Source: Gammaproteobacteria bacterium (GTDB lineage Bacteria; Pseudomonadota; Gammaproteobacteria; Xanthomonadales; Wenzhouxiangellaceae). Taken from it: 64,000 nt of DNA. The notes below the pieces were generated by a model. That model saw only the letters and a program-made list of their open reading frames with translations. It was not told where the DNA came from and did not search any database. The stretch lies in contig JBJHCC010000010.1 in NCBI GenBank assembly GCA_050485825.1, positions 23,895 through 87,894 on the forward strand, written 5' to 3'. Below, in pieces: positions 1-63,306 of this stretch (the first letter of the stretch is position 1; the number at the start of each line of letters is the position of its first letter). A program made the position numbers and the translations under genes.

Positions 1-2
1 CC

Positions 3-905
3 AAACCAGACCGAGATCAGAAAGGCCGCCACCACTACCAGTACCGCGGGCAGCAGCGCGACACCTTGAATGCGACCACGCAGCCGGGCCAGCAGGACAA
101 CCGCTGCCAGTGCCGCCACCAGGCCCGCTGCCGAGCCCAGGCGCGAGGCCGAGCTGAAAATGGCCGCCGCGATCAGTGCCCCGGCAATCACGCTGCCGGT
201 CAGCTTGAGCTCGGTCGGCAGCCTGCCCAGCAGCGGCATGTCGCGAATCCACCAGACGCAAACCGCCAGCACCCAGGTCAGCGCCAGGTAGGCGGAGAAC
301 AGATTGCGGTTGCTGAAGCTGCCCTGGACCCAGGTGGTCGAGTGGCGCGGCCAGATGCCCAGCACCGTTTGCGCGCCGGTGAACTGGCTGAACAGGCCGT
401 AGACCGCCTGAAAGCAGGCCATCGCCGCAACCGCCAGCAGCAGCCAGTTGCGCTCCATGCGACTCAAGCGGCTGCTGATCCAGGCGATCACGAACAGCGC
501 CATGAACACCGCCCAGGCGCGCCGGCTCGCCGCGGGATCGGGCGACCAGCGCTCCGGGGTGAACGACGGATGCTGCCACAGTGCCTCCGGATACGGCCCG
601 AACAGCGCGGCCAGGCCGGTGGACGGCCACAGTTGCAGGGCTGTCGGCAGCGACACCAGGGCCAGTACCAGCCACCAGCCCAGGCCCGGCGGGGTGGCAA
701 AGCGCGCGCGATCAGGGCTCAGCAGAGTCAAACCCAGGGCCAGGATTGCTCCGGCCACCATCACCAGGCTGCTCAGGCTCAGCGTTTCGGGGCTGCGGTT
801 GCCCATCATCAGCGGCAGAATCAGAACCAGCCCGATCAGCGCCAGCGGCGCGATCAGGGTGCTGGGCGACAGCGCCGGCGATGAACGATGACGGCTTGGC
901 GACAT
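3..905 (-). CDS. O-antigen ligase/Wzy_C family polytopic membrane protein (partial, runs off left edge)
   Basis: Not in the ORF track. Manual minus-strand translation from ATG at 905 (MSPSRHRSSPALSPSTLIAPLALIGLVLILPLMMG...) is open to the window edge, with many hydrophobic helices and the motifs GSFSNRNLFSAYL and SASRLG typical of this family. Confidence 0.7.
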   Translation of the reverse strand, partial: MSPSRHRSSPALSPSTLIAPLALIGLVLILPLMMGNRSPETLSLSSLVMVAGAILALGLTLLSPDRARFATPPGLGWWLVLALVSLPTALQLWPSTGLAALFGPYPEALWQHPSFTPERWSPDPAASRRAWAVFMALFVIAWISSRLSRMERNWLLLAVAAMACFQAVYGLFSQFTGAQTVLGIWPRHSTTWVQGSFSNRNLFSAYLALTWVLAVCVWWIRDMPLLGRLPTELKLTGSVIAGALIAAAIFSSASRLGSAAGLVAALAAVVLLARLRGRIQGVALLPAVLVVVAAFLISVWF

Positions 906-2445: not shown

Positions 2446-3692
2446 GGCCCCGCCTCCGGCGCCAGCGGCTCGATCACCACATCGTCCAGCCAAAGGATGC
2501 CGCCGAGGTTGCGATCGAATGCCGTCGTGCTGTCCCGGCGCAGGCTGATTCGTAGCCCATGCGCTTCGGCCGGCAGCTCAAACTCCCAGGCCCAGGGCGT
2601 CCAGTCAAAGCTGGCCCGCGGGGTTTCAATCTGTTCGCGAAGCCTCGCACCTTCGGCCTCGATCCTCAGATAGGGTCGGGCGCGTGTACTCAACGCCTCC
2701 GCGCGCCAGTAGCCGCTCAGCCGATAGCGTTGCCCGCCTTGCAGCGCAAAGCGCACCGACGGCGCGCGCAAATCGATGTTGTCGGTGCCGGCGAACCGTA
2801 CGGCCAGCGACGCGGGCGGGCTGCGATACCGGTCGACATCGCGATAGACGGTCACGCTTGCCGGAACCGGCCCATCGCGCCAATTGAGGCCGCGCCCGAC
2901 GTCCAGGGGCCTCTGGAAGCGCCCGTTCGGCACATCGCCGAAGGCATAGCTGGGGTCGAACTCGGCCCACAGCTCAGCGGCCTCGCGCCAGCGGCCTTGC
3001 CGCATCAGCAGTTCGACATAGCTCGACAGCATCGGGTCATCGAGCTCGGCCTCTGGCGCGGCCCGCCGCCATACCGCAGCGGCCAACACCACATCGCGCT
3101 GGCGGTCGGCATGGCGCATGGCAGCCTGCAGATACTCCCGCTGCGGCGGCAGCAGCTGGTCGAGGAGGGTATCCAGATCCGGATTCCAGCGCTGCGCGCT
3201 GGCCAGCGCCGTGGCGACAGCGCCAGGCTGGCCCTGCAGCCAGTGCTTCAGGCTGCTCGTGGCCTGCTCGAATTCGCCCATCTGCAGGGCGATCTGGGCG
3301 GCTTGCCAATGGCTGGCGCGCTGCGCCGGGGCCAGTGAGACGGCGGTGGCGCTGGTGGCCAGCATGGTGTCGGCGTCGGCTTGCAGGGAAGTGGCCTGCC
3401 GCCGCGCCAGTGCCCACCACAGGCCATGATCCAGCGGCAGCGTGCGGAGCAGTTCGAAAGCCGAGCCGTTCCAGTCCGGCAGTTCGGCGCTGGACCAGGC
3501 CGACGCCGTCACCCGGGCCAGATCGGCGCGGGCATGGCCACCGCGGATGTCGGCTGCTGCCGGCAGTGTGCGGGTCGCCGCTTGCCCCTGCGCCAGCGTC
3601 CGCAGGTCGCGAAACTCGATCACCGTCACCGCCAGGGCCAGAATCAGCCCGGCCAGCAGCAGCGAACGGCTCACCGTCGCGGCGGCCGTCAC
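2442..3692 (-). CDS. Membrane-anchored helical-repeat (TPR-like) protein with C-terminal carbohydrate-binding-like beta domain
   Basis: N-terminal hydrophobic anchor, helical repeats, and a C-terminal GNFE-like/LWLDDVVIEP beta-sandwich pattern; sits in the wzc operon. Confidence 0.5.
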   Translation of the reverse strand: MTAAATVSRSLLLAGLILALAVTVIEFRDLRTLAQGQAATRTLPAAADIRGGHARADLARVTASAWSSAELPDWNGSAFELLRTLPLDHGLWWALARRQATSLQADADTMLATSATAVSLAPAQRASHWQAAQIALQMGEFEQATSSLKHWLQGQPGAVATALASAQRWNPDLDTLLDQLLPPQREYLQAAMRHADRQRDVVLAAAVWRRAAPEAELDDPMLSSYVELLMRQGRWREAAELWAEFDPSYAFGDVPNGRFQRPLDVGRGLNWRDGPVPASVTVYRDVDRYRSPPASLAVRFAGTDNIDLRAPSVRFALQGGQRYRLSGYWRAEALSTRARPYLRIEAEGARLREQIETPRASFDWTPWAWEFELPAEAHGLRISLRRDSTTAFDRNLGGILWLDDVVIEPLAPEAGP

Positions 3693-3704
3693 GGCCTTAT
3701 TCCG

Positions 3705-6068
3705 TCAGCCTGAGCTGGCAGCCTTGGCCGGCCGAGCATCAGCTTCTTCCGAATCCCCTTCGTTGTAGTAGTTGTAGTAGTACGACGAGTAGTACGCGTA
3801 GTCCGGGTTGTCCAGGTCCACCTGGTTCAGCACCACCCCCAACAATGGTGCCTGCACCTGGGACAAGCGCCGAACGCTGGTCTTGATATTGTCCTTGCGC
3901 GTCCTGCCGGAGCTGGTCACCATGATCACCCCATCAACCAGGCGCGACAGCACCAGCGCGTCGGCCAGGCCCAGGATCGGCGCTGAATCGATGATCACAT
4001 GATCAAAGGCGCGTGCGGCCATGTCGATGATCTTGCGCATCCGCTCGGAGCCGAGCAGCTCGGCAGGGTTCGGCGCATGGCTGCCGCTGGGCATCAGGAA
4101 CAGGCCGTCGACGGTGGTGGCCACGATCGCCGAGCTGCTGCCGGCAACGTCCGCGCCGGCGATACGGTTCGACAGCCCGGGCGCTGCCGGAATGCCGAAA
4201 TCTCGATGCAGTCGCGGCTTGCGCAGGTCGGCGTCAATCAGCAGCACCCTGGCGCCGTTCTGGGCCATCACCGTCGCCAGGTTGATGGCGTTGGTGGTCT
4301 TGCCATCCCCCGGTCCGGGGCTGGTGACCAGAATCGTCCTGGGCATACCACTGGGTGTTGAGAACATCAGGCTGGTGCGCAGCGAACGGAAGGCCTCGGA
4401 CACGGCGGACTTCGGGTGCAGTTCGCTGTAGTGACTGACCGCGCGATCAGCCAGCCCTCGACTCAACGCGCTCATGCTGGCCCGATCACGTTGCTTGACC
4501 ATCGGCACCAGGCCAATGACGGGGCGGCGGACCAGCTTTTCGAGGTCTTCGACCCGGCGAATCGTCGTGTCGAGGAACTCCAGCATGACCGCCAGCCCAA
4601 CTGCCAGCGCAATCCCGATCGCCAGAGCCATGACGATATTCCGCTGAGTATTCGGCAGATAGGGCCGCCCGACCGGCAGGGCGCCGTCGATCAAGGCGAC
4701 ATTGTTTTCCTGGATCCCGGCCGCGATGCCGATTTCCTTCAGTCGCTGCAGCATGCCGTCATAGAGTTCCCGGCTGGTCTCGAACTCGCGCCGCAGAATG
4801 TTGTACTGCACACCTTGCTGGTTCAGAGTCAGCAGTTCGCCTTCGCGTTCCTCGATCGCCCGACCCAGCGTGCGAATCTCGGACTCGAGATTCCGGTAAT
4901 CCGTGATGACCCGGTCAATGATCTGGCGGCGCCGGTCTGCAATCTGTTGATCGATCTCCGCAATCCGCCCGCGGAGCTCCACCAGCGCTGGGAAGTCGTC
5001 CTGATAACGTTGCGAAAGGCTCACCTGTTCCAGGGCCAGGCTGGAACGTTGGGTGTTCAGGGCGCGAATGCGCTCGTCGTCAGCCACCAGGCGGATCTGG
5101 TTGCCCTGGCCGCTATCGATCAATTCGCGAAACGCCCGCAGCTGGATCAAGTCCCCCTGCGCGCGGGTCAGCTGAGCGTTGAGGTTGCGCAACGACTCGG
5201 TGCGCATCTGGATGCGCTCGCTGAGGTCGGCCACCCGCTGCTGCTGGGCAAAGTCCAGTAGCGACTGATCGGCCCGCTCCAGCGCGATGCGCATATCGTC
5301 GAGTTGCTCCTCCAGGAACGCTCGCGCCTCCTGGCCCGCATCATATCGACGCTGCATGCTCGAGCGCATGTATTCCTCAGCCACAGCGTTGGCTAGTTGA
5401 GCAGCGAACTGGGGATCGAAGGCCGAAACAGAAATATTCACCAGCCGCGAGTTGGGACGTCCGGCGACCTGAATCCGTCCCCGAAGAATCGATCCCGCCC
5501 GCCGAATCGCCCATTCCCTGGCTCGTTCTGGGTCAACCCCTGCCATCGGATCGCTACTGGCGTCGCGATTGAGTGCTTGCCGGATCCGCCACGGCAGCAT
5601 CCGCAGTTCCCCGCTGAGGCTGCGCTGATAGATCTCGCCGGACAGCTCAGGATGGTTTTCAATCCCCAGGCGACGGACCACATCTTCGGAAAGCTGACGC
5701 CCACGGAGGATCTCGAACTGCGTCTGGCGGAACTCTTCTACGCCTTGCCAGCTTCTCGGGGTGGCTTCGAAGTCCTCGATGCGCAGGATGCGGGCAGAGT
5801 CGTGGTTGATCTGGATAACGGCCGTGGAGCGGTAGGCGGGAACGGTCAGCATGGTTTGCAGAATGCCGATGCACAAGGCAACGGTGATCACGCTGGCTAC
5901 GATCCATCTGCGCTTGCGGACAGCGTTCCACAAGACCAGCAGATCAATGACTTCTTCGTTTGAGCTCTCTTCGCTCGCCCATTGGTACGGGTCGTACTTG
6001 GCGAGCGCGGTAGCGTTTTTTTCGACCGGCTTCAGGTGCCGCCCCGTCGATTCAGTATTGTCGGACAT
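3705..6068 (-). CDS. wzc: Polysaccharide co-polymerase / BY tyrosine kinase (Wzc/GumC/ExoP family)
   Basis: Two TM segments flanking a coiled coil, Walker A SPGPGDGKTT, LIDADLRKP, IIDSAP, and C-terminal Tyr cluster YAYYSSYYYNYY. Confidence 0.93.
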   Translation of the reverse strand: MSDNTESTGRHLKPVEKNATALAKYDPYQWASEESSNEEVIDLLVLWNAVRKRRWIVASVITVALCIGILQTMLTVPAYRSTAVIQINHDSARILRIEDFEATPRSWQGVEEFRQTQFEILRGRQLSEDVVRRLGIENHPELSGEIYQRSLSGELRMLPWRIRQALNRDASSDPMAGVDPERAREWAIRRAGSILRGRIQVAGRPNSRLVNISVSAFDPQFAAQLANAVAEEYMRSSMQRRYDAGQEARAFLEEQLDDMRIALERADQSLLDFAQQQRVADLSERIQMRTESLRNLNAQLTRAQGDLIQLRAFRELIDSGQGNQIRLVADDERIRALNTQRSSLALEQVSLSQRYQDDFPALVELRGRIAEIDQQIADRRRQIIDRVITDYRNLESEIRTLGRAIEEREGELLTLNQQGVQYNILRREFETSRELYDGMLQRLKEIGIAAGIQENNVALIDGALPVGRPYLPNTQRNIVMALAIGIALAVGLAVMLEFLDTTIRRVEDLEKLVRRPVIGLVPMVKQRDRASMSALSRGLADRAVSHYSELHPKSAVSEAFRSLRTSLMFSTPSGMPRTILVTSPGPGDGKTTNAINLATVMAQNGARVLLIDADLRKPRLHRDFGIPAAPGLSNRIAGADVAGSSSAIVATTVDGLFLMPSGSHAPNPAELLGSERMRKIIDMAARAFDHVIIDSAPILGLADALVLSRLVDGVIMVTSSGRTRKDNIKTSVRRLSQVQAPLLGVVLNQVDLDNPDYAYYSSYYYNYYNEGDSEEADARPAKAASSG

Positions 6069-6280
6069 TGCTGCTCTTGGGGCTCAGTGCGGCGGGCTGG
6101 GGTTTAAGCTTGGCCGTTGGCCTCCTGATTGAGGCTGGAACTGGCCCGGAACGAGCGCGTCAGGGAGCGGGCTCGCTCCAAGTACGCGCTGGACAAGACC
6201 TGGCTGTGGAAGACCCGAAACCGGAGCGCATGACGCTGCGCACTGAAGCTGCAAGAGTCCCCCTCAACCCGCCAGAGCGT

Positions 6281-7458: not shown

Positions 7459-7513
7459 CCGGAAGCCTGAAACCGAAAACCGTTAGTTCCTGAACCCTGA
7501 GCCCTGAAACCCA
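7459..7513 (+). repeat. Degenerate heptamer tandem array (CCnnAAn)
   Basis: ccggaag cctgaaa ccgaaaa ... ccctgag ccctgaaa between the marR stop and the gmd start. Confidence 0.75.
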
Positions 7514-8634: not shown

Positions 8635-8729
8635 ACAAAGAGTTCCGGGTTCAGGTTTCGGGTTTCGGGTTTCGGGTGCAGAATTTGGCTTTAGAAACAG
8701 TAGAGTGCGTGTTTCTGGGGGCTGCTTAG
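8627..8729 (+). pseudogene. Possible vestigial 5' remnant of an earlier fcl allele, interrupted by heptamers
   Basis: ATG overlapping the gmd stop gives MNKQRV (E. coli Fcl starts MSKQRV). After the heptamer array, 8676-8729 reads VQNLALETVECVFLGAA*, compared with [18 protein letters not shown] in the intact fcl. Short match. Confidence 0.45.
8645..8677 (-). repeat. Heptamer tandem array, reverse orientation (GGTTTCG)n
   Basis: ccgggtt caggttt cgggttt cgggttt cgggt. Confidence 0.85.
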
Positions 8730-10101: not shown

Positions 10102-10626
<525 letters not shown>

Positions 10627-11570: not shown

Positions 11571-11703
11571 CCGTAAACCTGAACCCTGAACCCTGAACCC
11601 TGAACCCTGAACCCTGAACCCTGAACCCTGAACCCTGAACCCTGAAACCTGAAACCTGAAACCTGAAACCTGAAACCTGAAACCTGAAACCTGAAACCTG
11701 AAA
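11571..11703 (+). repeat. 19-unit heptamer array: CCGTAAA + (CCTGAAC)9 + (CCTGAAA)9
   Basis: Counted directly; ends 1 bp before the next ATG. Confidence 0.97.
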
Positions 11704-12007: not shown

Positions 12008-12595
<588 letters not shown>

Positions 12596-35011: not shown

Positions 35012-36102
35012 AATGGTTTGTTCATATAGGTACTGAAAAGACGGGAAGCTCGCATTTGCAGAGCATCCTGAGCCTGGGCCGGGAGTCGCTTGCTGCCCAA
35101 GGCTTCGCCTTTCCCGCGGGCACGCCCCATGACGAGAGGTGCATGCAGAGCGGCCAGATTTCGGCGGGGAATGGCCGGCGCTTGGCGGCGTCGCTTGGGA
35201 GCCATGACCTGGCGTCCGCACGGGCCGAGATCAGCAATATGCTTGGCCTGGCAAAGCGAGCCCGGCAGGATCGCGTGATTGTCGCAACCGAGTGGTTGTT
35301 GCCAGTACTTGCGGTGCAGGGCGGGCTGAGCCGATTTCTGGGGCTGCTTCGTGAGCAGGGGTCTGATGCGGTGTCCTTGCTGCTGGTCCTGCGTGACCCG
35401 GTCGATCAGTGCCTGTCGCTGTACAAGCATCGGGCGAAGAGCGGCAAGCTGTCTGATATCGGGGAATGGTTGGACAAGGGCTATCGTCTGCCGTCAGAGT
35501 TGACTGGCTTGCGGGAGCAACTGGGCGGCTGCGAGGTGGATCTCCGCGTGCGCCGCTATTCGCGCGAGCCTGGAGCCTTGGAGAAACTTTTTTTCCAAGA
35601 GTGGCTGGGCGTTCAAGTTCCATTGGTGGACTTGCCAGCTACGGTCAATGCCTCGCTCAGCCTGTCCGAACTGGCTCTGATTCATCAGCTTGCGCTCAGC
35701 CGACCGGAGTTGGTTCAGCCGATGTTTGATTCCCTGGCGAGGATGCCTGCTGCTGACAAGGCGCGCCACGCTGGGCTGGAAGAGTATGCTCGGGCAATGG
35801 CAGCTGCAGCGGTCAGCGCCTACGCCGAGGAGTGGGCGGCATGGAACGATCGGCTCCCGGTGAACGAGCGCTTGTCTATTCCGGAGAGGCCAGTGACGCT
35901 GCCTCCGCGACCCAGGGAAGTGGCTTTCAGTGAGGCTCAGCTTGCAAGGATTGCTGCCGTCACCGCCGAGGCGGCTACGCTGAGCGCTCTGAGTCGCTCG
36001 TTCTGGCATTGGCGGCTGCGCCCGGCACTCGGGCGGATTGCTCGGCCATTCAGATCGAGTCGCAATCGGCAGGCCGTCAAGAGTTATGAAAATTCTCGGT
36101 GA
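35008..36102 (+). CDS. Sulfotransferase-like protein
   Basis: VHIGTEKTGSSHLQ; LVLRDPVD. Confidence 0.65.
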   Translation: MKWFVHIGTEKTGSSHLQSILSLGRESLAAQGFAFPAGTPHDERCMQSGQISAGNGRRLAASLGSHDLASARAEISNMLGLAKRARQDRVIVATEWLLPVLAVQGGLSRFLGLLREQGSDAVSLLLVLRDPVDQCLSLYKHRAKSGKLSDIGEWLDKGYRLPSELTGLREQLGGCEVDLRVRRYSREPGALEKLFFQEWLGVQVPLVDLPATVNASLSLSELALIHQLALSRPELVQPMFDSLARMPAADKARHAGLEEYARAMAAAAVSAYAEEWAAWNDRLPVNERLSIPERPVTLPPRPREVAFSEAQLARIAAVTAEAATLSALSRSFWHWRLRPALGRIARPFRSSRNRQAVKSYENSR

Positions 36103-37027
36103 TCAGTACGGTGCTGGCGCAGGCAGCCCGCAGCTGACTGTCCGCTACAAAGGGGACGAGCACGTTATCCGCTGGCCGCAAGCGCCGCTCGTCGCGCAGG
36201 TCCTGCAGGGCGCCTGCGACAATGCTCAGAATCCTCGGCTGCTCGCCGGACGCCAGCGACAGGGTCTGCCCGGCTTCGAGATTGACCTGGCGGATCCGGA
36301 ACTCCGGGCACTCGGCGATGATGCGCTCGCCGACGTCGGAAAAGCGGGGTTGTGGTTCTGGTTCGAAGTCGCTGAAGTCAATCGATTGCAGGCTTTGCTG
36401 GAGATGCAGCTGGCGCGGCCGGCCGTCGAGCCCTGTTCGGCCCCAGTCGTAGACGCGGTAGGTGGTGTCTGAGTTCTGCTGGATCTCGAGAATCAGGTTG
36501 CCCGCGTCGATGGCGTGCAGTCGGCCAGACTGCAGCAGCATGGCCTGACCCGGCTGGACAGGGAAGCGGTGGAGCAGGGGCTCCAGGGTTTCGCTTTCAA
36601 TAGCGCGCTCGAATTGCTGCCGGGTCACGCCGCGACGCAGGCCAACGATCAGCGCCGCATCGTCGACGGTGTCGGCCACGTACCAGCACTCGGTCTTGGG
36701 TTCGCCGCCCAGCTTTTCGGCGACGGCGGCTGGCGGATGCACCTGCAGGCTGAGTCGTTGACTGCAGTCCAGCCATTTGACGAGAACTGGGAAGGGCCTT
36801 TCGGGAACGTATCCGGGGCCCATGATTCTTTCTGGATCGGCCATCAGCAGCTGGCGCAGAGTCTTGCCGCTGCTCCGGTCCACGGACTGGGCTTCCGGAC
36901 GGTCGACGATTTCCCAAGACTCGCCGACCGGGCCGTCAAGCGGAAGTTTTCGGCCCAGGCGCTGGCTTAGGGCTCTGCCGCCCCAGACGCGGGCTTGGTA
37001 GATGGGGTGGAAGCGGAGTAGGGGCAT
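36077..37027 (-). CDS. manA: Type I phosphomannose isomerase (cupin)
   Basis: RVWGG, GESWE, LSLQVHP, KTECWY, HAI, EIQQNSDTTYRVYDW. Confidence 0.9.
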   Translation of the reverse strand: MPLLRFHPIYQARVWGGRALSQRLGRKLPLDGPVGESWEIVDRPEAQSVDRSSGKTLRQLLMADPERIMGPGYVPERPFPVLVKWLDCSQRLSLQVHPPAAVAEKLGGEPKTECWYVADTVDDAALIVGLRRGVTRQQFERAIESETLEPLLHRFPVQPGQAMLLQSGRLHAIDAGNLILEIQQNSDTTYRVYDWGRTGLDGRPRQLHLQQSLQSIDFSDFEPEPQPRFSDVGERIIAECPEFRIRQVNLEAGQTLSLASGEQPRILSIVAGALQDLRDERRLRPADNVLVPFVADSQLRAACASTVLITENFHNS

Positions 37028-37229
37028 GTTGGGAAAGGTTTCAGGTATCAGGGGCCGACTGGTGCCGACGATTGTATGACGAGATCAATGTCAGTCTTGC
37101 ACGGTTATTGGGTGGCCCTGATGTAGAAAACCCTGCGCCTTGAAAGGCAAGGTTTTGGCGGTGGACTTCGCCAGGCTAGGGCTGAAACAATCGCTGAAGT
37201 TCAGTTGGGTCGGGTGGCAGGTCCGTCGC

Positions 37230-37264
37230 TTGACAAGGACAGTTTCCTTGCTAGAGTAAGGAAA
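37230..37264 (+). promoter_or_regulatory. TA promoter with overlapping operator
   Basis: TTGACA (37230), 16 bp, extended -10 TGcTAGAGT; inverted repeat TTTCCTT-N8-AAGGAAA at 37243-37264. Confidence 0.65.
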
Positions 37265-37554
37265 TGGCCAAGATCACCAGCAAACTCCAGGTCACGCTGC
37301 CCAAGCGACTGGCCGAAAAGCACGGGATCGCACCCGGCGACGAGGTGCGCTTTGAGTCGGTCGCCGGGGTGATTCGCATGTTGCCGGGGAGCGCGCCGGC
37401 TGATCTGCTCGCCATGAACGAGCGGCTGCGGCTTTTTGATGAGGCCACCCGAAGAATCGATCAGCGGTCACGCGCACTTTCGGCGATGGCGGCACCGTCG
37501 TCGGATAGGGGCTGGACCCGCGATGAGCTGTATGAACGCGGCGCGCCTGATTGA
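37264..37554 (+). CDS. AbrB/MazE-family antitoxin (VapB-like)
   Basis: KITSKLQVTLPKRLAEKHGIAPGDEVRF. Confidence 0.9.
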   Translation: MAKITSKLQVTLPKRLAEKHGIAPGDEVRFESVAGVIRMLPGSAPADLLAMNERLRLFDEATRRIDQRSRALSAMAAPSSDRGWTRDELYERGAPD

Positions 37555-38014
37555 TACCAACGTGCTGGTGTATCGGTTTGACCCGCGCGATCCGGTCAAG
37601 CAGACAATTGCCACCGAGGTTTTGCGATCCGCTCTGATGGATTGCAGTGCGGTGCTGCCTCATCAGGCCCTGGTGGAGTTCGTGGCGGCAGTGTCGCGGC
37701 CCTGTCGTGATCTATCGGGTCAACCATTGCTGGCGCGGGCAGATGCATTGCTCGAGGCGGAATCCATGACCAGGCAGTTTCCGGTCGTGTACCCCGATTC
37801 CACTGTCCTCGCCACCGCCCTGCGGGGCTGTGCAATCTATCAGCTGTCCTGGTTTGATGCCCATCTCTGGGCTTACGCCGAATGCTTCGGGCTGCCGGAG
37901 ATTCTGTCCGAAGACTTCGAGCATGGTCGGCACTATGGCAGGGTTCGAGTGGTCAATCCTTTTCAGTCGAGTGGCGGTGCTGTTCAGGAATTGCCGGGGT
38001 TGTATTCAGATTAA
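37532..38014 (+). CDS. PIN-domain toxin (VapC-like)
   Basis: LIDTNVLVY, SWFDAHL, ILSEDF. Confidence 0.9.
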   Translation: MNAARLIDTNVLVYRFDPRDPVKQTIATEVLRSALMDCSAVLPHQALVEFVAAVSRPCRDLSGQPLLARADALLEAESMTRQFPVVYPDSTVLATALRGCAIYQLSWFDAHLWAYAECFGLPEILSEDFEHGRHYGRVRVVNPFQSSGGAVQELPGLYSD

Positions 38015-38029
38015 GGCGGGGTGATGGGA

Positions 38030-38090
38030 GGTTTCCGGGTTCGGGGTTCAGGGTTCAGGAAAAGACGGTTTCCGGGTTCCGGTTTCCGGG
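38030..38090 (-). repeat. Heptamer array, reverse orientation
   Basis: ggtttcc gggttcg gggttca gggttca ... ggtttcc gggttcc ggtttcc. Confidence 0.85.
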
Positions 38091-38135
38091 GTGCTGGGGG
38101 TTTGGTTTAGCTGGTTTTTGGGGGAGGGAGTCGGT

Positions 38136-38351
38136 TTGATTCGGGAATTGGTTGGTCTGGTACGAGAGATTTACCAGACGGGTGAGTTTGTGCCCCTGCA
38201 TCGCCCGGTCTTTGCCGGCACCGAGCGCGAGGACCTGATCGCCTGCATAGACTCCAACTTCGTGTCCTCCGTCGGTGAGAAAGTCACCGAGATGGAGCGG
38301 CGGGTGGCCGACTTTGCCGGGGCGCGTTTTGGGGTGGCGGTGGTCGCGTGA
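38136..38351 (+). pseudogene. Truncated 5' copy of the LegC-like aminotransferase
   Basis: TTG start after a GGAG SD; encodes FVPLHRPVFAGTEREDLIACIDSNFVSSVGEKVTEMERRVADFAGARFGVAVV then stops. 38286-38345 is identical to 39779-39838. Confidence 0.92.
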
Positions 38352-38374
38352 TCTGTTACCCGTGTTGCTCATTC

Positions 38375-38403
38375 TAGGCATTACGCCTATTTTTGCATAT
38401 AAT
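38375..38403 (+). promoter_or_regulatory. sigma70-like promoter of the XRE-AbiEii cassette
   Basis: TAGGCA-17 bp-TATAAT. Confidence 0.6.
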
Positions 38404-38434
38404 GAGAAACACTTTTTGAGAACGCTATTACAGC

Positions 38435-38920
38435 ATGCCCGCCAAAATCGAGCGTCTGAACAGTCAGGAGCTTGCCGATCGAGTCGCAGAGATCGCTGCG
38501 AGAATCAAGGCTCGCCGGAAGGCGATGGGAGTCAGTGCCACGGCCGCTGCTGAGGCGGCGGGGATGTCGCGGGTGACGTGGCATCGAATCGAAAGCGGCC
38601 AGACTTCGGTCACCATCGGCGCGTGGTTCAACGCGCTGGCGGTTCTTGGTCTGCGGTTTGATCTTGGAGACCGGTCCTCGCCGGAGGCAAAAGGTGACCC
38701 GTCCGAGTCCGGGGCGTTCCTGCCCGTCAGGATCAGCTTGGGCGATTATCCGCAGCTTGAAGCGCTCGCTTGGCAGATTGCTCCCGGAGAGACACTGAGT
38801 CCGCAAGAAGCCTTGGGCATTTATCGCAGAAATCGGCGCCATTTGGATGAAGCCGACGTTTCTCCCCGCGAACGTGCCCTGATCGATGCGTTGCAAAGTG
38901 TATTTGGGTCGGATGGCTGA
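38435..38920 (+). CDS. XRE-HTH antitoxin
   Basis: RIKARRKAMGVSATAAAEAAGMSRVTWHRIESG HTH; C-terminal DYPQL..LAW domain. Confidence 0.82.
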   Translation: MPAKIERLNSQELADRVAEIAARIKARRKAMGVSATAAAEAAGMSRVTWHRIESGQTSVTIGAWFNALAVLGLRFDLGDRSSPEAKGDPSESGAFLPVRISLGDYPQLEALAWQIAPGETLSPQEALGIYRRNRRHLDEADVSPRERALIDALQSVFGSDG

Positions 38921-39621
38921 TGTTCGAGCGGCCGCACCACCAAAGAATCCAACGCGTACTGGAAAGCCTCGACAGCCGATTGCTGACCGACCATTGCTGC
39001 TACTTTGGCGGAGGAACTGCAATCGTGCTTACCCGCGGCGAGTATCGGGAGTCGCTTGATCTGGATTTCCTGATCTCGAACCTCGACGCCTATCGCGAAT
39101 TGCGTCGGCTGCTGGGGCAGCGCGATGGTTTGGCCGCCCTGTTTCGATCCGGTTCTGAACTGTTTGCACAGTCCCGAGAGGTGCGGTCCGATCAATATGG
39201 AATCCGCACTTGGCTGCTTGTCGATGATGTCCAAGTCAAGTTTGAAATTGTGTTTGAGGCGCGCATCAATCTTGAAGCGCCAGCGGCGAGCGACGCGATC
39301 TGCGACGTCGCAACGCTGACTGGGCTGGATATGGCTGCAAGCAAGCTCTTGGCGAATTCCGATCGCTGGGCCGATGATGGGGTTTTTGGTCGCGACGTGA
39401 TCGATCTGGCCATGCTGGAGCCGACTTTGGGGGAACTGCGGTCGGCTTTACTCAAAGCAGAGACAGCATATGGGGACGCAATTCGTCGCGATCTCGCCAA
39501 GGCTGTTGAGCGGATGCGGTCCCGTCATGGCTGGATGGAGCGCTGCATGAGCAAACTGAAGATTGAGTTGCCCAAGGCTTATTTGTGGGAGCGTATGCGG
39601 CGACTTCGGGTGGATGATTGA
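38920..39621 (+). CDS. AbiEii-family nucleotidyltransferase toxin (type IV TA)
   Basis: YFGGGTAIVL...YRESLDLDF, KLLANSDR..D...RDVID. Confidence 0.87.
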   Translation: MFERPHHQRIQRVLESLDSRLLTDHCCYFGGGTAIVLTRGEYRESLDLDFLISNLDAYRELRRLLGQRDGLAALFRSGSELFAQSREVRSDQYGIRTWLLVDDVQVKFEIVFEARINLEAPAASDAICDVATLTGLDMAASKLLANSDRWADDGVFGRDVIDLAMLEPTLGELRSALLKAETAYGDAIRRDLAKAVERMRSRHGWMERCMSKLKIELPKAYLWERMRRLRVDD

Positions 39622-39622
39622 A

Positions 39623-40765
39623 ATGAGCACGACGGCCGGGTTGATTGCTCTGATCAGAGCGATTTACGGCACAAGCGGATTCGTCCCTTTGCACCGCCCG
39701 GTTTTTGCCGGCAGCGAGCGCGAGGACCTGATCGCCTGCATCGACTCCAACTTCGTCTCTTCGGTCGGCGAGAAGGTGACCGAGATGGAGCGGCGGGTGG
39801 CCGACTTTGCCGGGGCGCGTTTTGGGGTGGCGGTGGTCAACGGCACCAATGGCCTGCAGGTTGCCCTGCGGCTGGTCGGGGTGGGGCGCGACTGCGAGGT
39901 GATCACTCAGGCGCTGAGCTTTGTGGCGACTTGCAATGCCATCGCCTACCTGGGCGCCCATCCGGTGTTTGTTGATGTGGATCGGGCGACGCTGGGGATG
40001 AGTCCGGATGCCTTGCGGGCGTTTCTGGATGAGTTCGGCGATCGGCGCGAAGGTGGCTGCTACAACCGGTCCAGCGGCCGTCGGATCGGGGCTGTCCAGC
40101 CCATGCACAGCTTTGGCCACCCGGTGCGGATCGACGAGATTGCGGCGATCTGCGCCGAGTGGGGCATTCCGCTGGTCGAGGATGCGGCGGAGTCGCTGGG
40201 CAGCTACTTCCAGGGGCGCCACACTGGTACCTTCGGCCGGCTGGGCGTATTCAGCTTCAACGGCAACAAGATCATCACCACCGGCGGCGGCGGGATGATC
40301 GTGACAGATGATGAGGACCTGGCCCGGCAGGCCAAGCACCTGACCACCACGGCCAAGCTGCCGCACGCGTATGAATATGTCCACGACGAGCTGGGCTACA
40401 ACTTCCGCATGCCGAACCTGAACGCGGCGCTGGGATGTGCGCAGATGGAACAGCTGCCGGGCTTTCTGGCCGTCAAGCGCGAGATCGCAGGGCGCTATGC
40501 GGAGTTCTGCGCCGCGCATGGGATCGAGTTCGTGTCCGAGCCCGAGCATGCGCGCTCGAATTACTGGCTGAACGCCATCATCCTCGGCGATCGCGCCGAG
40601 CGCGACGCCTTTTTGAAGACCACCAACGACCAGGGCATCATGACCCGCCCGATCTGGCGACTCCTGAGCGAACTGCCGATGTATGCGGCCTGCCAGCACG
40701 ATGGCCTGGCGATGTCGCGGTGGTTGGAGGATCGGGTGGTGAATTTACCGTCTTCGGTGCCGTGA
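39623..40765 (+). CDS. PLP-dependent sugar aminotransferase (DegT/DnrJ/EryC1/StrS; LegC-like)
   Basis: VEDAAESLG, SFNGNKIITTGGGG, YNFRMPNLNAALG, VNLPSS. Confidence 0.93.
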   Translation: MSTTAGLIALIRAIYGTSGFVPLHRPVFAGSEREDLIACIDSNFVSSVGEKVTEMERRVADFAGARFGVAVVNGTNGLQVALRLVGVGRDCEVITQALSFVATCNAIAYLGAHPVFVDVDRATLGMSPDALRAFLDEFGDRREGGCYNRSSGRRIGAVQPMHSFGHPVRIDEIAAICAEWGIPLVEDAAESLGSYFQGRHTGTFGRLGVFSFNGNKIITTGGGGMIVTDDEDLARQAKHLTTTAKLPHAYEYVHDELGYNFRMPNLNAALGCAQMEQLPGFLAVKREIAGRYAEFCAAHGIEFVSEPEHARSNYWLNAIILGDRAERDAFLKTTNDQGIMTRPIWRLLSELPMYAACQHDGLAMSRWLEDRVVNLPSSVP

Positions 40766-40796: not shown

Positions 40797-40998
40797 GTAG
40801 GTCGGCCCCACGCGGCCGACGGACCATGTGTGCCGAGGCCCCAACATCGTCCGTCGGGGACGTGGCCCCGACCTACGGGTGCCAGTCGATGCCCCGCAGA
40901 AAGGGTTGGCCCGGATGCCGTAGGTCGGCCCCACGCGGCCGACGGACCATGTTTGCCGAAGCCCCGCATCCCCCGTCGGGGACGTGGCCCCGACCTAC
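40797..40998. repeat. REP array 1: two inverted REP pairs
   Basis: GTAG-headed palindromes at 40797 and 40920, each followed by an inverted partner ending CTAC. Confidence 0.9.
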
Positions 40999-41097: not shown

Positions 41098-41119
41098 TTG
41101 ATTGCGATACGGTAGGCGG

Positions 41120-42271
41120 ATGATTCCGCGCGCAGCCGACGCTTTGGTGCACCAGCTTTTGGCGGGCTTTCCCATTGTGACCATTACCGGTCCGCGGCAG
41201 TCAGGCAAGACGACGCTGGCGCGGAAAGTCTTTGCCGATCGTCCCTACCGGTCGTTGGAGGACCCGGATCTAAGGGCTCTGGCCCTTGATGATCCGCGCG
41301 GATTCCTGGCACAGCTCCCGGATGGGGGCGTGTTGGACGAAGTCCAGCGGGCGCCGGACTTGTTGTCCTATCTGCAGTCAAACGTGGACGACGACGGCCG
41401 CATGGGCCGCTTCCTGCTCACCGGATCACAGCAGTTTGGTCTGATGTCCGGCATTTCGCAATCGCTGGCGGGGCGCAGTGCCTTTGTAGAACTGTTGCCG
41501 CTGAGCCATGCGGAGTTGGTCCGGGCTGGCAAGGCGTCGGCATCTCTCGACGCCAATCTGTTTACCGGAGGCTATCCAGCTTTGTATGACCGTCAGCTCG
41601 AGCCTCGGCGGTGGTTCCCGGCCTACGTTGCGGCGTATGTGGAGCGGGATGTGCGCCAGATGTTGAAGGTGCAGGACCTGGATGCGTTTCAACGCTTTGT
41701 GCGCCTTTGCGCTGGACGCAGCGGACAGATTCTCAATCTGTCGTCGCTGGCGGCCGACTGCGGGATTACCCACAACACGGCACGAGCCTGGATTTCGGTG
41801 CTGGAAGCCAGTTACGTTCTGTTCCTGTTGCAGCCGCACCATGCCAATTTCAACAAGCGCTTGATCAAGGCGCCCAAGTTGTATTTTCTGGACACCGGCC
41901 TGCTGTGCTGGTTGCTGGGGATCCAGGAGCAGGAGCAGCTGGCGGCTCACCCGCTGCGCGGCGCGATTTTCGAGTCCTGGGTGGTCAGCGAGTTGCGCAA
42001 GGCCTGGCTGAATCGCGGGGAGCGCCCGCTGTTCTATTTCTGGCGCGACAGCAACGGCAATGAGGTCGATCTATTGATTGAATCGGGTTCTGGCCTGATG
42101 CCAATCGAGATCAAGTCCGGGCAGACCTTGAACAGGGACTTTTTTACCGGCCTGGAGCGCTGGCTTGCGCTCGCCGGCTCGATGGCACAAAGCCCGACCC
42201 TGGTTTACGGGGGAGAGGGGGGCCATGAGCGACGGGGGGTGCGGGTGTTGGGCTGGCGGGAGATTCACTGA
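41120..42271 (+). CDS. AAA_14 ATPase with DUF4143 / C-terminal nuclease-like domain
   Basis: ITGPRQSGKTT, LDEVQ, LLTGSQ, PKLYFLDTGL, EVDLLIE...PIEIKSG. Confidence 0.9.
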   Translation: MIPRAADALVHQLLAGFPIVTITGPRQSGKTTLARKVFADRPYRSLEDPDLRALALDDPRGFLAQLPDGGVLDEVQRAPDLLSYLQSNVDDDGRMGRFLLTGSQQFGLMSGISQSLAGRSAFVELLPLSHAELVRAGKASASLDANLFTGGYPALYDRQLEPRRWFPAYVAAYVERDVRQMLKVQDLDAFQRFVRLCAGRSGQILNLSSLAADCGITHNTARAWISVLEASYVLFLLQPHHANFNKRLIKAPKLYFLDTGLLCWLLGIQEQEQLAAHPLRGAIFESWVVSELRKAWLNRGERPLFYFWRDSNGNEVDLLIESGSGLMPIEIKSGQTLNRDFFTGLERWLALAGSMAQSPTLVYGGEGGHERRGVRVLGWREIH

Positions 42272-42357: not shown

Positions 42358-42876
42358 GTAGGTCGGCCCCACGCGGCCGACGGACCATGTTTGCCGAAGC
42401 CCCAGCATCGTTCGTCGGGGACGTGGCCCCGACCTGCGGGTGCCGGTCGATGCCTCGGAGAAAGGGTTGGGCGCGGATGCCGTCGGTCGGCCCCACGCGG
42501 CCGACGGACCATGTTTGCCGAAGCCCCAGCATCGCCCGTCGGGGACGTGGCCCCGACCTACGGGTGCCGGTCGATGTCTCGGAGAAAGGGTGGGGCGCGG
42601 ATGCCGTAGGTCGGCCCCACGCGGCCGACGGACCATGTTTGCCGAAGCCCCTACATCGTCCGTCGGGGACGTGGCCCCGACCTACGGGTGCCGGTCGATG
42701 CTTCGGAGCAATGATTGGCCTCGGATGCCGTAGGTCGGCCCCACGCGGCCGACGGACCATGTTTGCCGAAGCCCCGCATCCCCCGTCGGGGACGTGGCCC
42801 CGACCTACGGGTGCCGGTCGATGCCCCGGAGAAAGGGTTGGCCCGGATGCCGTAGGTCGGCCCCGCGCGGCCGACG
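42358..42876. repeat. REP array 2: four pairs plus one single, about 124-bp period
   Basis: Units start at 42358, 42482, 42606, 42730 and 42852. Confidence 0.93.
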
Positions 42877-42957
42877 GACCATGCTCGCCGAATCCCCACA
42901 TCCCTAATCTCGCCGCCTCGCCAACCCGAATCTGCCAAAAAACGACCCTCTAAAGTT

Positions 42958-43006
42958 CCGTAACCCGTAACCCGTAACCCGTAACCCGTAAGCCGTAAGC
43001 CAAAAA
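42958..43006 (+). repeat. Heptamer array (CCGTAAC)4 (CCGTAAG)2 CCAAAAA
   Basis: Counted directly; ends 8 bp before the ATG at 43015. Confidence 0.95.
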
Positions 43007-60668: not shown

Positions 60669-60995
60669 GTATGTCGGCCCTACGCGGCTGACGGACCATG
60701 TGTGCCGCAACCCGATATCGTCCGTCGGGGACGTGGCCCCGACCTACTCGGTGCCAGTCGATGCCGCAGAGAATTCATTGGGCGCGGTTTACGTAGGTCG
60801 GCCCCACGTGGCCGACGGACCGTGTATGCCGAAGCCCGATATCGTCCGTCGGGGACGTGGCCCCGACCAACTCGGTGCCGGTCGATACCTCGGAGCATTC
60901 ATTGGGCGCGGTTTGCGTAGGTCGGCCCCACGCGGCCGACGGACCAGGATTGCCGAAGCCCCACATCTTCCGTCGGGGACGTGGCCCCGACCGAC
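60669..60995. repeat. REP array 3: three pairs, 124-bp period
   Basis: Units at 60669 (degenerate), 60793 and 60917. Confidence 0.9.
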
Positions 60996-61085
60996 TCGGT
61001 GTCGGTCGATGAATCGGAGATCTGGTTGGGCCGGGTTTGGGTGGGATCCCGGCCTGCCACGTCGCCCGTATTCGGGTGATCTGAT

Positions 61086-62954: not shown

Positions 62955-63227
62955 GTAGGTCGGCCCCACGCGGCCGACGGACCATGTGTGCCGCAACCCG
63001 ATATCGTCCGTCGGGGACGTGGCCCCGACCTACTCGGTGCCGGTCGATACCTCGGAGAATTCATTGGGTGCGGTTTGCGTAGGTCGGTCCCACGCGGCCG
63101 ACGGACCATGCCTGCCGAAGCCCCGCATCGTCCGTCGGGGACGTGGCCCCGACCTACTCGGTGCCGGTCGATGCCGCAGAGAATTCATTGGGCTCGATTG
63201 GCGTAGGTCGGCCCCACGCGGCCGACG
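62955..63227. repeat. REP array 4: two pairs plus one single
   Basis: Units at 62955, 63079 and 63203, between convergent genes. Confidence 0.9.
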
Positions 63228-63306
63228 GACCATGCCTGCCGAAGTCCCCAAGGTCAAAGGTCTGCGCCCGGACAGGCTACCGGTCTCGGTCTGCCGGGGG
63301 CAGATC

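Follow-up and report, generated by a model that had tools for sequence, protein, structure and literature searches.

The DNA stretch considered here comprises 64,000 nucleotides (nt) of contig JBJHCC010000010.1 from a gammaproteobacterium of the Wenzhouxiangellaceae; it is called the window below, and its positions serve as coordinates throughout. It contains a toxin-antitoxin (TA) gene pair that lies between a truncated and a full-length copy of legC, a sugar aminotransferase gene. Analysis of open reading frames (ORFs) and domains confirmed the gene order that an earlier note had read from the letters of this DNA, namely a truncated legC-like copy, a promoter, an XRE-AbiEii pair and the full legC gene (Table 1), and the stump and the full gene begin with different N-termini as written there. 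The stump ORF extends from the TTG at 38136 to 38351 (216 nt, 71 amino acids (aa), TGA stop at 38349-38351) and gives a weak DegT match. The full gene matches DegT_DnrJ_EryC1 (1.4e-85) and positions 1-359 of the 359 positions of TIGR04181, 'LegC family aminotransferase', with 529 bits versus a cut-off of 420. Gene nt are counted from the present legC ATG at 39623, which is located 1 nt 3' of the toxin stop and is preceded at a distance of 8 nt by GGTGGA. The insert as such (38346-39778) measures 1433 bp and has the XRE/AbiEi-like and AbiEii genes as its sole genes. Among the ORFs scanned from approximately 25.3 to 57.8 kb of the window (about 13 kb around the locus), none carried an integrase or transposase domain, in agreement with the earlier statement that no recombinase gene is nearby, and no short flanking target duplication was seen at the cassette.

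The two genes of the cassette are related to AbiE systems. Residues 100-159 at the C-terminus of the antitoxin match the PADLOC AbiEi model PDLC02278 (2.3e-15), and its N-terminus is an XRE-type helix-turn-helix (HTH) domain, HTH_31 (PF13560). The toxin matches PADLOC PDLC02298 at 2.5e-68, carries a GGGTA...DLD motif and is a member of a very large family, in which more than 6800 homologues were matched; a sequence search of the PDB returned no relative of it. The antitoxin stop and the toxin start share 1 nt. A promoter scan detected a sigma-70-like site (TAGGCA-17-TATAAT, 38375-38403) upstream of the XRE gene, and the promoter/operator block GTGTTTCT..TATAATGAG[A/C]AACA is conserved in the metagenome contig L081, which carries the closest relative of the toxin (81% aa identity), and in L165-L170. 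Between the window and L081, the TA genes differ mainly at third codon positions and the antitoxin has 161 aa in both, and this mark of purifying selection suggests that both TA genes are functional. No terminator was found between the toxin gene and legC, and Rfam gave no match within 36-43.5 kb. Given the TA promoter, the lack of a terminator and the legC ATG 1 nt after the toxin stop, legC would be readable as a third cistron of the TA operon from its autoregulated promoter, besides read-through from upstream.

A 14-nt inverted repeat (12/14 matches; 38360-38373 and 39622-39635) is located exactly at the two ends of the cassette. The legC ATG now in use is contained in its right arm, AATGAGCACGACGG, and this arm is similar to the operator half-site AATGAGAAACA, so that it could be a third operator-like site or a product of chance. 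More distant relatives of the cassette lack such an inverted repeat at their 3' end. In view of this absence and of the lack of both a transposase and a short duplication, a unit resembling an insertion sequence (IS) or transposon was rejected.

The two legC copies form a direct repeat of 198 nt (38148-38345 and 39641-39838; 86% identical, spacing 1493 nt) that brackets the TA pair. Its final part is an identical run of exactly 60 nt (38286-38345 = 39779-39838), bounded on the left by a mismatch and on the right by an abrupt loss of homology at 38345/38346, which upholds the 60-bp identity and the upstream divergence reported in the earlier note. Against relatives, the tract is merely 78-92% identical and therefore does not represent an invariant segment. 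If the divergence is set to that of the adjacent 96 nt (13.5%), 60 consecutive matches have a chance of 1.6e-4, and if it is set to that of the whole remaining repeat, a chance of 4e-8; the tract can therefore be considered real. In nt 67-156, the two copies in the window differ at 11 sites. Ten of the 11 differing codons are synonymous (p = 5e-5 under neutrality), and the eleventh is a Ser/Thr difference, with both residues found in functional homologues. As a decaying stump would be expected to gain mostly nonsynonymous changes, these differences appear to have arisen in two functional alleles before the event, and the incoming arm should therefore have extended to nt 156 or beyond. Judged from these patterns, the point at nt 157 from which the copies match perfectly is a real mosaic boundary.

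Comparison with relatives assigned the two 5' ends to different lineages. In a scan with one genome per species, the nearest legC genes were found in Wenzhouxiangella assemblies, which makes an origin of the window in this group probable, and a large protein collection contained closer relatives (P0122, P0123 and P0127; 85-89% aa identity), whose N-termini (MIRELVGLVREIYQTGEF...) are of the stump type and not of the type of the present gene. P0127 begins with exactly the stump peptide IRELVGLVREIYQTGEFVPLHRPVFAGTEREDL. The stump and the contigs of these three relatives (L172-L174), which lack the cassette, are referred to as the R lineage. Over gene nt 1-156, the stump is 86-89% identical to L172-L174 and the present gene 72-75%, as against an identity of 82-86% between the body of this gene and the same three sequences. 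This excess 5' divergence was significant (Fisher p 0.002-0.01), and a maximum chi-square breakpoint was detected in the present legC (permutation p = 5e-4). Of 26 informative sites within nt 1-66, 23 group the stump with the R lineage and place the current copy with a legC fragment on L081. The divergence and the site pattern thus identify the present legC as a chimera of a foreign start and the resident body, and the stump as the resident start. The MSTT-type start of the present gene was found in no other protein in an N-terminal search of 5.8 billion clusters; the best-matching N-terminus, that of P0126, shows 78% identity across 93% of the first 40 residues. The approximately 20 N-terminal residues that were replaced are outside the TIGR04181 profile, and homologues differ in both the length and the sequence of this part; the swap was therefore likely tolerated.

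These data bear directly on the possibility that the legC 5' end was duplicated in tandem at the locus itself, that the copies then diverged and that the TA cassette was inserted between them. Such a history would account for the direct orientation and the common register of the copies, yet the copies are of different lineages, their differences are synonymous and not decay-like, divergence is strongly heterogeneous along the repeat, and in L081 the foreign start goes together with the cassette. We consider this scenario scarcely credible, and in its simple form it is effectively refuted by the lineage comparison, the informative sites and the synonymous pattern.

The linkage in L081 is extensive: DNA homology to the window covers 38362-39707 (80%) and spans the operator, the toxin stop, the TGA-A-ATGAGCACGAC junction and 90 nt of the legC start, in a contig without the legC body. 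The 90-nt fragment (2022-2111) contains an in-frame TGA and is followed by period-7 repeats and a convergent VapBC pair, and an IS630-family transposase (2-556, minus strand) abuts the left end of this closest cassette relative. No legC fragment was detected at any of 80 metagenome loci with toxin relatives of 55-63% identity or at any of 6 loci at 67-74%. Plasmid records contained only two short toxin-gene matches of about 77%; no relative of the cassette was found in phage records, and no toxin relative on viral contigs. The 39 viral matches to a 16-mer taken from the junction were dismissed as chance, since none of the three genes occurs on those contigs. The foreign legC start is thus known only with this cassette, and both have diverged together.

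Relatives also provide empty-site alleles. In L172, L173 and L174, a MazE-PIN or VapB-PIN pair is directly followed by legC, without XRE-AbiEii and with a single copy of the repeat. Positions 136-1243 of L172 align with 37224-38344 of the window at 82%, and colinearity resumes from 39640 onward. L001 is emptier still, with the phosphomannose-isomerase-like gene (PMI) directly beside legC. Neither of the two outcomes that the earlier note named as refuting its reading was thus observed. The two 5' ends derive from different lineages, the stump belonging to the R lineage and the current start recurring only beside the closest TA relative, and empty-site alleles exist in relatives. The idea of a TA cassette that brings along a foreign gene start is therefore upheld, and the interpretation in the earlier note is supported in part.

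Probably, a recombinase-free TA cassette carrying a foreign legC start entered the resident legC by homologous recombination, most simply by a single crossover of a circle. The 1.43-kb AbiE-type cassette, without a recombinase of its own, would bear the legC start of another lineage at its 3' end. In a Campbell-type single crossover, the legC arm of a circular, looped-out copy would recombine with the chromosomal legC and be duplicated; the native start and the first 216 nt would be left upstream as the stump, followed by the cassette, and the gene would be rebuilt from the incoming 5' end and the resident body. Duplication of a whole arm, from the gene start to a fixed nt 216, with non-homologous DNA between the copies would be explained in this way, because a single crossover between chromosome and circle inherently yields this arrangement. 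The circle could originate from an earlier integrated copy whose direct repeats recombined with each other, and would measure 1493 bp in this genome. The 60-nt tract beside the arm end would most simply represent the crossover or a heteroduplex tract fixed by mismatch repair, or be due to later gene conversion. In the opposite direction, RecA recombination between the repeats would delete the cassette, restore the native legC and release the 1493-bp circle; the toxin would penalise such a loss, and a functional TA pair would select against segregants. We infer the circle, the crossover position, the expression of legC from the TA promoter and the addiction from the arrangement of the locus.

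Several observations weigh against this interpretation. Its main weakness is that a bare crossover does not predict a 60-nt identity in both copies, which would need a donor identical to the recipient in this part, mismatch repair of a heteroduplex or later gene conversion. Past nt 66, the present legC copy is not demonstrably foreign: the informative sites in nt 67-156 are split 5 vs 4 between the copies. The cassette with its start is known in just two copies, and L081, with its non-legC context, IS630 neighbour and in-frame stop, may be a decayed site and not a second homology-guided insertion. The order of events, i.e. which block was imported, is not readable from the structure alone. Finally, the circular, tandem and excised forms are deduced from a locus known from its integrated sequence alone, and the R-type 5' part is joined to the junction on the basis of the submitted assembly.

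The last point relates to an assembly artefact, in which two co-occurring strains, one with the native legC and one with the TA-legC arrangement, would have been joined via the common 60-mer. The sole independent sequence, Logan unitig L082 (run SRR31311414, k=31, 1493 nt), covers 38316-39808 only and breaks at the 60-mer, as an artefact of this kind would allow. The unitig contains the left junction 38345/38346, however, and joins legC nt 187-216 to the left flank of the cassette, so that the legC fragment upstream of the cassette is real in the reads. Moreover, a 60-nt repeat is below ordinary read span and normally resolved by assemblers, and the assembled contig has 96.9 kb. An assembly chimera is therefore unlikely, and we give it very little weight. 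The length of L082 equals the repeat spacing; we rejected it as evidence for a circle because a k=31 graph must break at the 60-mer.

The chief rival of single-crossover integration is a one-step duplicative insertion from linear DNA, either as an insertion of the long-target-duplication type or as homology-facilitated illegitimate recombination. Here, the right end would be joined by homology within legC and the left end illegitimately at nt 216, and 60 (up to about 150) nt would be duplicated recipient sequence. The resulting order, R(1-216) followed by 16 nt, the TA genes and the foreign 5' end and then R(157-end), explains the perfect 60-nt identity without repair, and the left junction with its 16-nt filler shows no homology, as an illegitimate joint would. 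The filler is similar neither to legC nor to the upstream flank in L081. Other cassettes in these loci are likewise flanked by direct repeats of 43-133 nt, and apart from the foreign start of the downstream repeat, the locus conforms to the operational definition of Furuta et al. (2010; PMC2853133). On the other hand, the right copy is not pure target sequence, as it differs from the stump at the 11 mostly synonymous sites in nt 67-156, and the mechanism of long target duplications is itself unknown. Illegitimate recombination with homology normally deletes rather than duplicates the recipient DNA between the joints; in events of the de Vries and Wackernagel type, this DNA is reportedly lost in most cases. 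On balance, we regard insertion from linear DNA as rather unlikely.

The 60-nt tract could also act as the core of an att site, although it is equally the expected outcome of homologous exchange. A remnant resembling a cis-mobilizable element (CIME) would presuppose an island that was put into the legC 5' end by an integrase, brought a replacement start and later shrank or was mobilised in trans. An identical core with diverged arms on one side, unrelated DNA on the other and a rebuilt target gene form the classical signature of gene-end integration, and when islands decay, TA modules are typically the last part to survive. However, the scanned ORFs contained no integrase, the interval of just 16 nt between the core and the TA promoter is too short for arm-type sites, L081 has retained the start without the core, and TA relatives were missing from phage records and viral contigs, with plasmid records contributing only the two short toxin matches. 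A shrunken site-specific island thus has no positive support and appears improbable to us.

A more far-reaching version of the homologous single-crossover reading, to which we assign a rather low probability, is that the cassette is an autonomous recombinase-free mobile element. It would use the legC start as a homing arm, loop out as a 1.5-kb circle through RecA and re-enter the legC genes of other strains by homeologous recombination, each time capturing the surface-sugar gene into its own autoregulated operon, so that loss of the cassette or its promoter would be costly. If this were true, the long-repeat mode would explain the movement of other TA and defence cassettes in these polysaccharide loci.

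Table 1. Features of the legC locus in the window and of related loci; entries beginning with L are positions on the respective relative.
Feature	Position	Strand	Evidence or remark
Phosphomannose-isomerase-like gene (PMI)	36077-37027	minus	
MazE/AbrB-type antitoxin gene of a VapBC-like neighbour pair	37264-37554	+	PF04014 8.5e-10; orthologous in L172, L173
PIN-domain toxin gene, partner of the MazE/AbrB-type antitoxin	37532-38014	+	PF01850 4.5e-9
Native legC upstream spacer: period-7 arrays and strong GGGAGGGAG Shine-Dalgarno before TTG	38015-38135	+	TRF rows 38029-38059, 38066-38090; colinear with L172, L173
Resident legC stump: native TTG and first 210 nt (= gene nt 7-216)	38136-38345	+	Peptide IRELVGLVREIYQTGEFVPLHRPVFAGTEREDL; 86-89% nt identity to L172-L174
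60-nt identical tract, left copy	38286-38345	+	Exact run
16-nt filler, origin unassigned; left, non-homologous junction	38346-38361	+	L081 homology starts only at 38362
Cassette promoter/operator: palindrome TGTTGCTCATT (38363-38373), AATGAGAAACA (38401-38411), around TATAAT (38398-38403)	38362-38434	+	Promoter scan
Antitoxin gene: XRE-type HTH N-terminus, AbiEi-like C-terminal part, 161 aa	38435-38920	+	PF13560 1.5e-11
AbiEii-family nucleotidyltransferase toxin gene	38920-39621	+	PF08843 7.8e-18; PADLOC AbiEii 2.5e-68
Putative incoming legC 5' arm: nt 1-66 (39623-39688) clearly foreign, nt 67-156 second functional allele	39623-39778	+	
60-nt identical tract, right copy	39779-39838	+	Exact run
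Full-length LegC-family aminotransferase gene, chimeric, 380 codons	39623-40765	+	TIGR04181 529 bits
Period-7 arrays in the window	7489-7508, 8642-8677, 10512-10621, 11575-11703, 12510-12595, 38029-38090, 42958-42998		
Direct repeats bracketing TA cassettes	L172 2176-2237/4320-4381; L173 677-720/1527-1570; L174 438-506/1300-1418; L081 2159-2201/2943-2985		
Variable TA pairs of the leg locus	L069 5243-5928; L174 605-1197, 2717-3377; L172 2436-4278		

The surroundings of legC are variable among relatives. The site upstream of legC holds differing TA types depending on the strain (Phd-PIN, VapB-PIN or MazE-PIN), and further pairs (Gp49/HTH, Phd, AbiE) are located downstream. Based on this strain-to-strain variety, we consider the leg locus a hotspot of TA turnover, a view derived from the compared sequences. 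In the relatives, direct repeats of 43-120 nt (72-90% identity), made up of local intergenic and heptamer sequence, enclose every TA cassette of the leg locus, an arrangement that suggests a common repeat-mediated mode of insertion. At 3573-6152, a JGI contig of 989 kb, L214, contains a different AbiEi/AbiEii pair (178 aa and 300 aa) directly upstream of an 85%-identical legC, whose start it overlaps by 4 nt (ATGA), with heptamer arrays upstream and without a legC stump. This separate fusion implies that TA-legC operons arose more than once.

Downstream of legC, the window contains a DUF4143/AAA_14 ATPase gene (PADLOC candidate PDC-S01, 41102-42271) in the segment 40766-43014, between arrays of a 124-nt REP-like (repetitive extragenic palindromic) sequence and flanked by a 133-nt direct repeat with 92% identity (40840-40972 and 42772-42904). 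In L071 and L003, legC is directly followed by a Polysacc_synt_2 gene without the ATPase, which therefore appears to be another inserted cassette. The palindromic 124-nt unit (GTAGGTCGGCCCCACGCGGCCGACGG...) forms tandem arrays at 42358-42902, 60669-61020 and 62955-63250. Period-7 tandem arrays occupy many intergenic gaps in the window, L081, L165-L174 and L214, with units such as AAACCTG (x18), AACCGGA (x12), GGTTTCC, GGTTCAG and CCGTAAC. We take them to resemble the heptamer repeats among the short tandemly repeated repetitive (STRR) sequences of cyanobacteria.

To our knowledge, chromosomal TA modules move horizontally, most of them without recognisable mobility machinery, and their mode of movement is poorly understood. 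The locus described here has retained the stump together with its two junctions; relatives with an empty site are known, as is another copy of the cassette with the hitch-hiked start. The locus thereby offers a testable route for TA movement, in which homology arms and the RecA of the host take the place of a recombinase. It would also provide a case of a selfish cassette that rewires the expression of a gene for surface-glycan (legionaminic-acid-type) biosynthesis. Surface-glycan loci often decide phage-host interactions.

With respect to its cargo, the cassette is best compared with AbiE (AbiEi/AbiEii) pairs, which are said to have been described by Dy and colleagues in 2014 as type IV toxin-antitoxin and abortive-infection systems; the MenAT systems of mycobacteria belong in the same comparison. 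A PF08843/AbiEii toxin, an AbiEi-like antitoxin C-terminus, overlapping genes and a palindromic operator around the promoter are shared, whereas the N-terminus of the antitoxin is an XRE-type HTH (PF13560) instead of the AbiEi winged-helix domain, and a biosynthetic gene is joined to the operon. With regard to integron gene cassettes, the borders of the present cassette are legC coding sequence, and an integrase was missing from the scanned ORFs.

With respect to its mode of insertion, the nearest known kinds are insertions with long target duplication of the restriction-modification (RM) type and integrative elements that rebuild their target gene. For RM units, 'insertion with long target duplication' was named by Kobayashi's group (Furuta, Abe & Kobayashi, 2010; PMC2853133), and Nobusato et al. 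(2000), as cited in PMC3874152, are given as the source for it. The operational definition demands an addiction-gene insert below 20 kb, a repeat above 30 bp, the lack of a mobility gene and an empty site with which the repeat can be aligned (PMC2853133). The legC locus has a 1433-bp insert, no mobility gene nearby, 60 identical nt within a 198-nt repeat and a single copy in L172-L174; only the derivation of both repeat copies from the target does not apply, as nt 1-66 of the downstream copy are of another, cassette-linked lineage. In both systems, an addiction pair without a linked mobility gene thus lies between long repeats in direct orientation (tens to hundreds of bp), which correspond to a single copy at the empty site, and the life cycle proposed for RM units likewise consists of insertion, use of the repeat and release. 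What sets the present case apart is the AbiE-type TA cargo, the insertion inside a coding region and a downstream repeat that begins with a foreign allele, which replaces the native start and joins the gene to the cassette operon.

The topology of the product is identical to that of laboratory insertion-duplication. In Campbell-type integration with a 5' fragment (pMUTIN-style), a truncated copy remains under the native signals, followed by the vector and an intact gene behind the vector promoter. Here, the event would be natural, the 'vector' would consist of the TA operon only, and the circular form is deduced from sequence. The arm is a diverged allele of only about 75-86% identity, and the recombination would therefore have been homeologous. 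Phages and integrative and conjugative elements (ICEs) that integrate into the ends of tRNA or protein genes, as well as CIMEs, carry a replacement gene end. As in the window, the target is rebuilt by sequence of the element, the displaced end is found at the other junction, and an identical core is present at both. The legC cassette differs from these elements by its size of 1.4 kb, by the lack of an integrase nearby and of space for recombinase arm sites, and by the replacement of the 5' end of the target gene instead of the usual 3' end.

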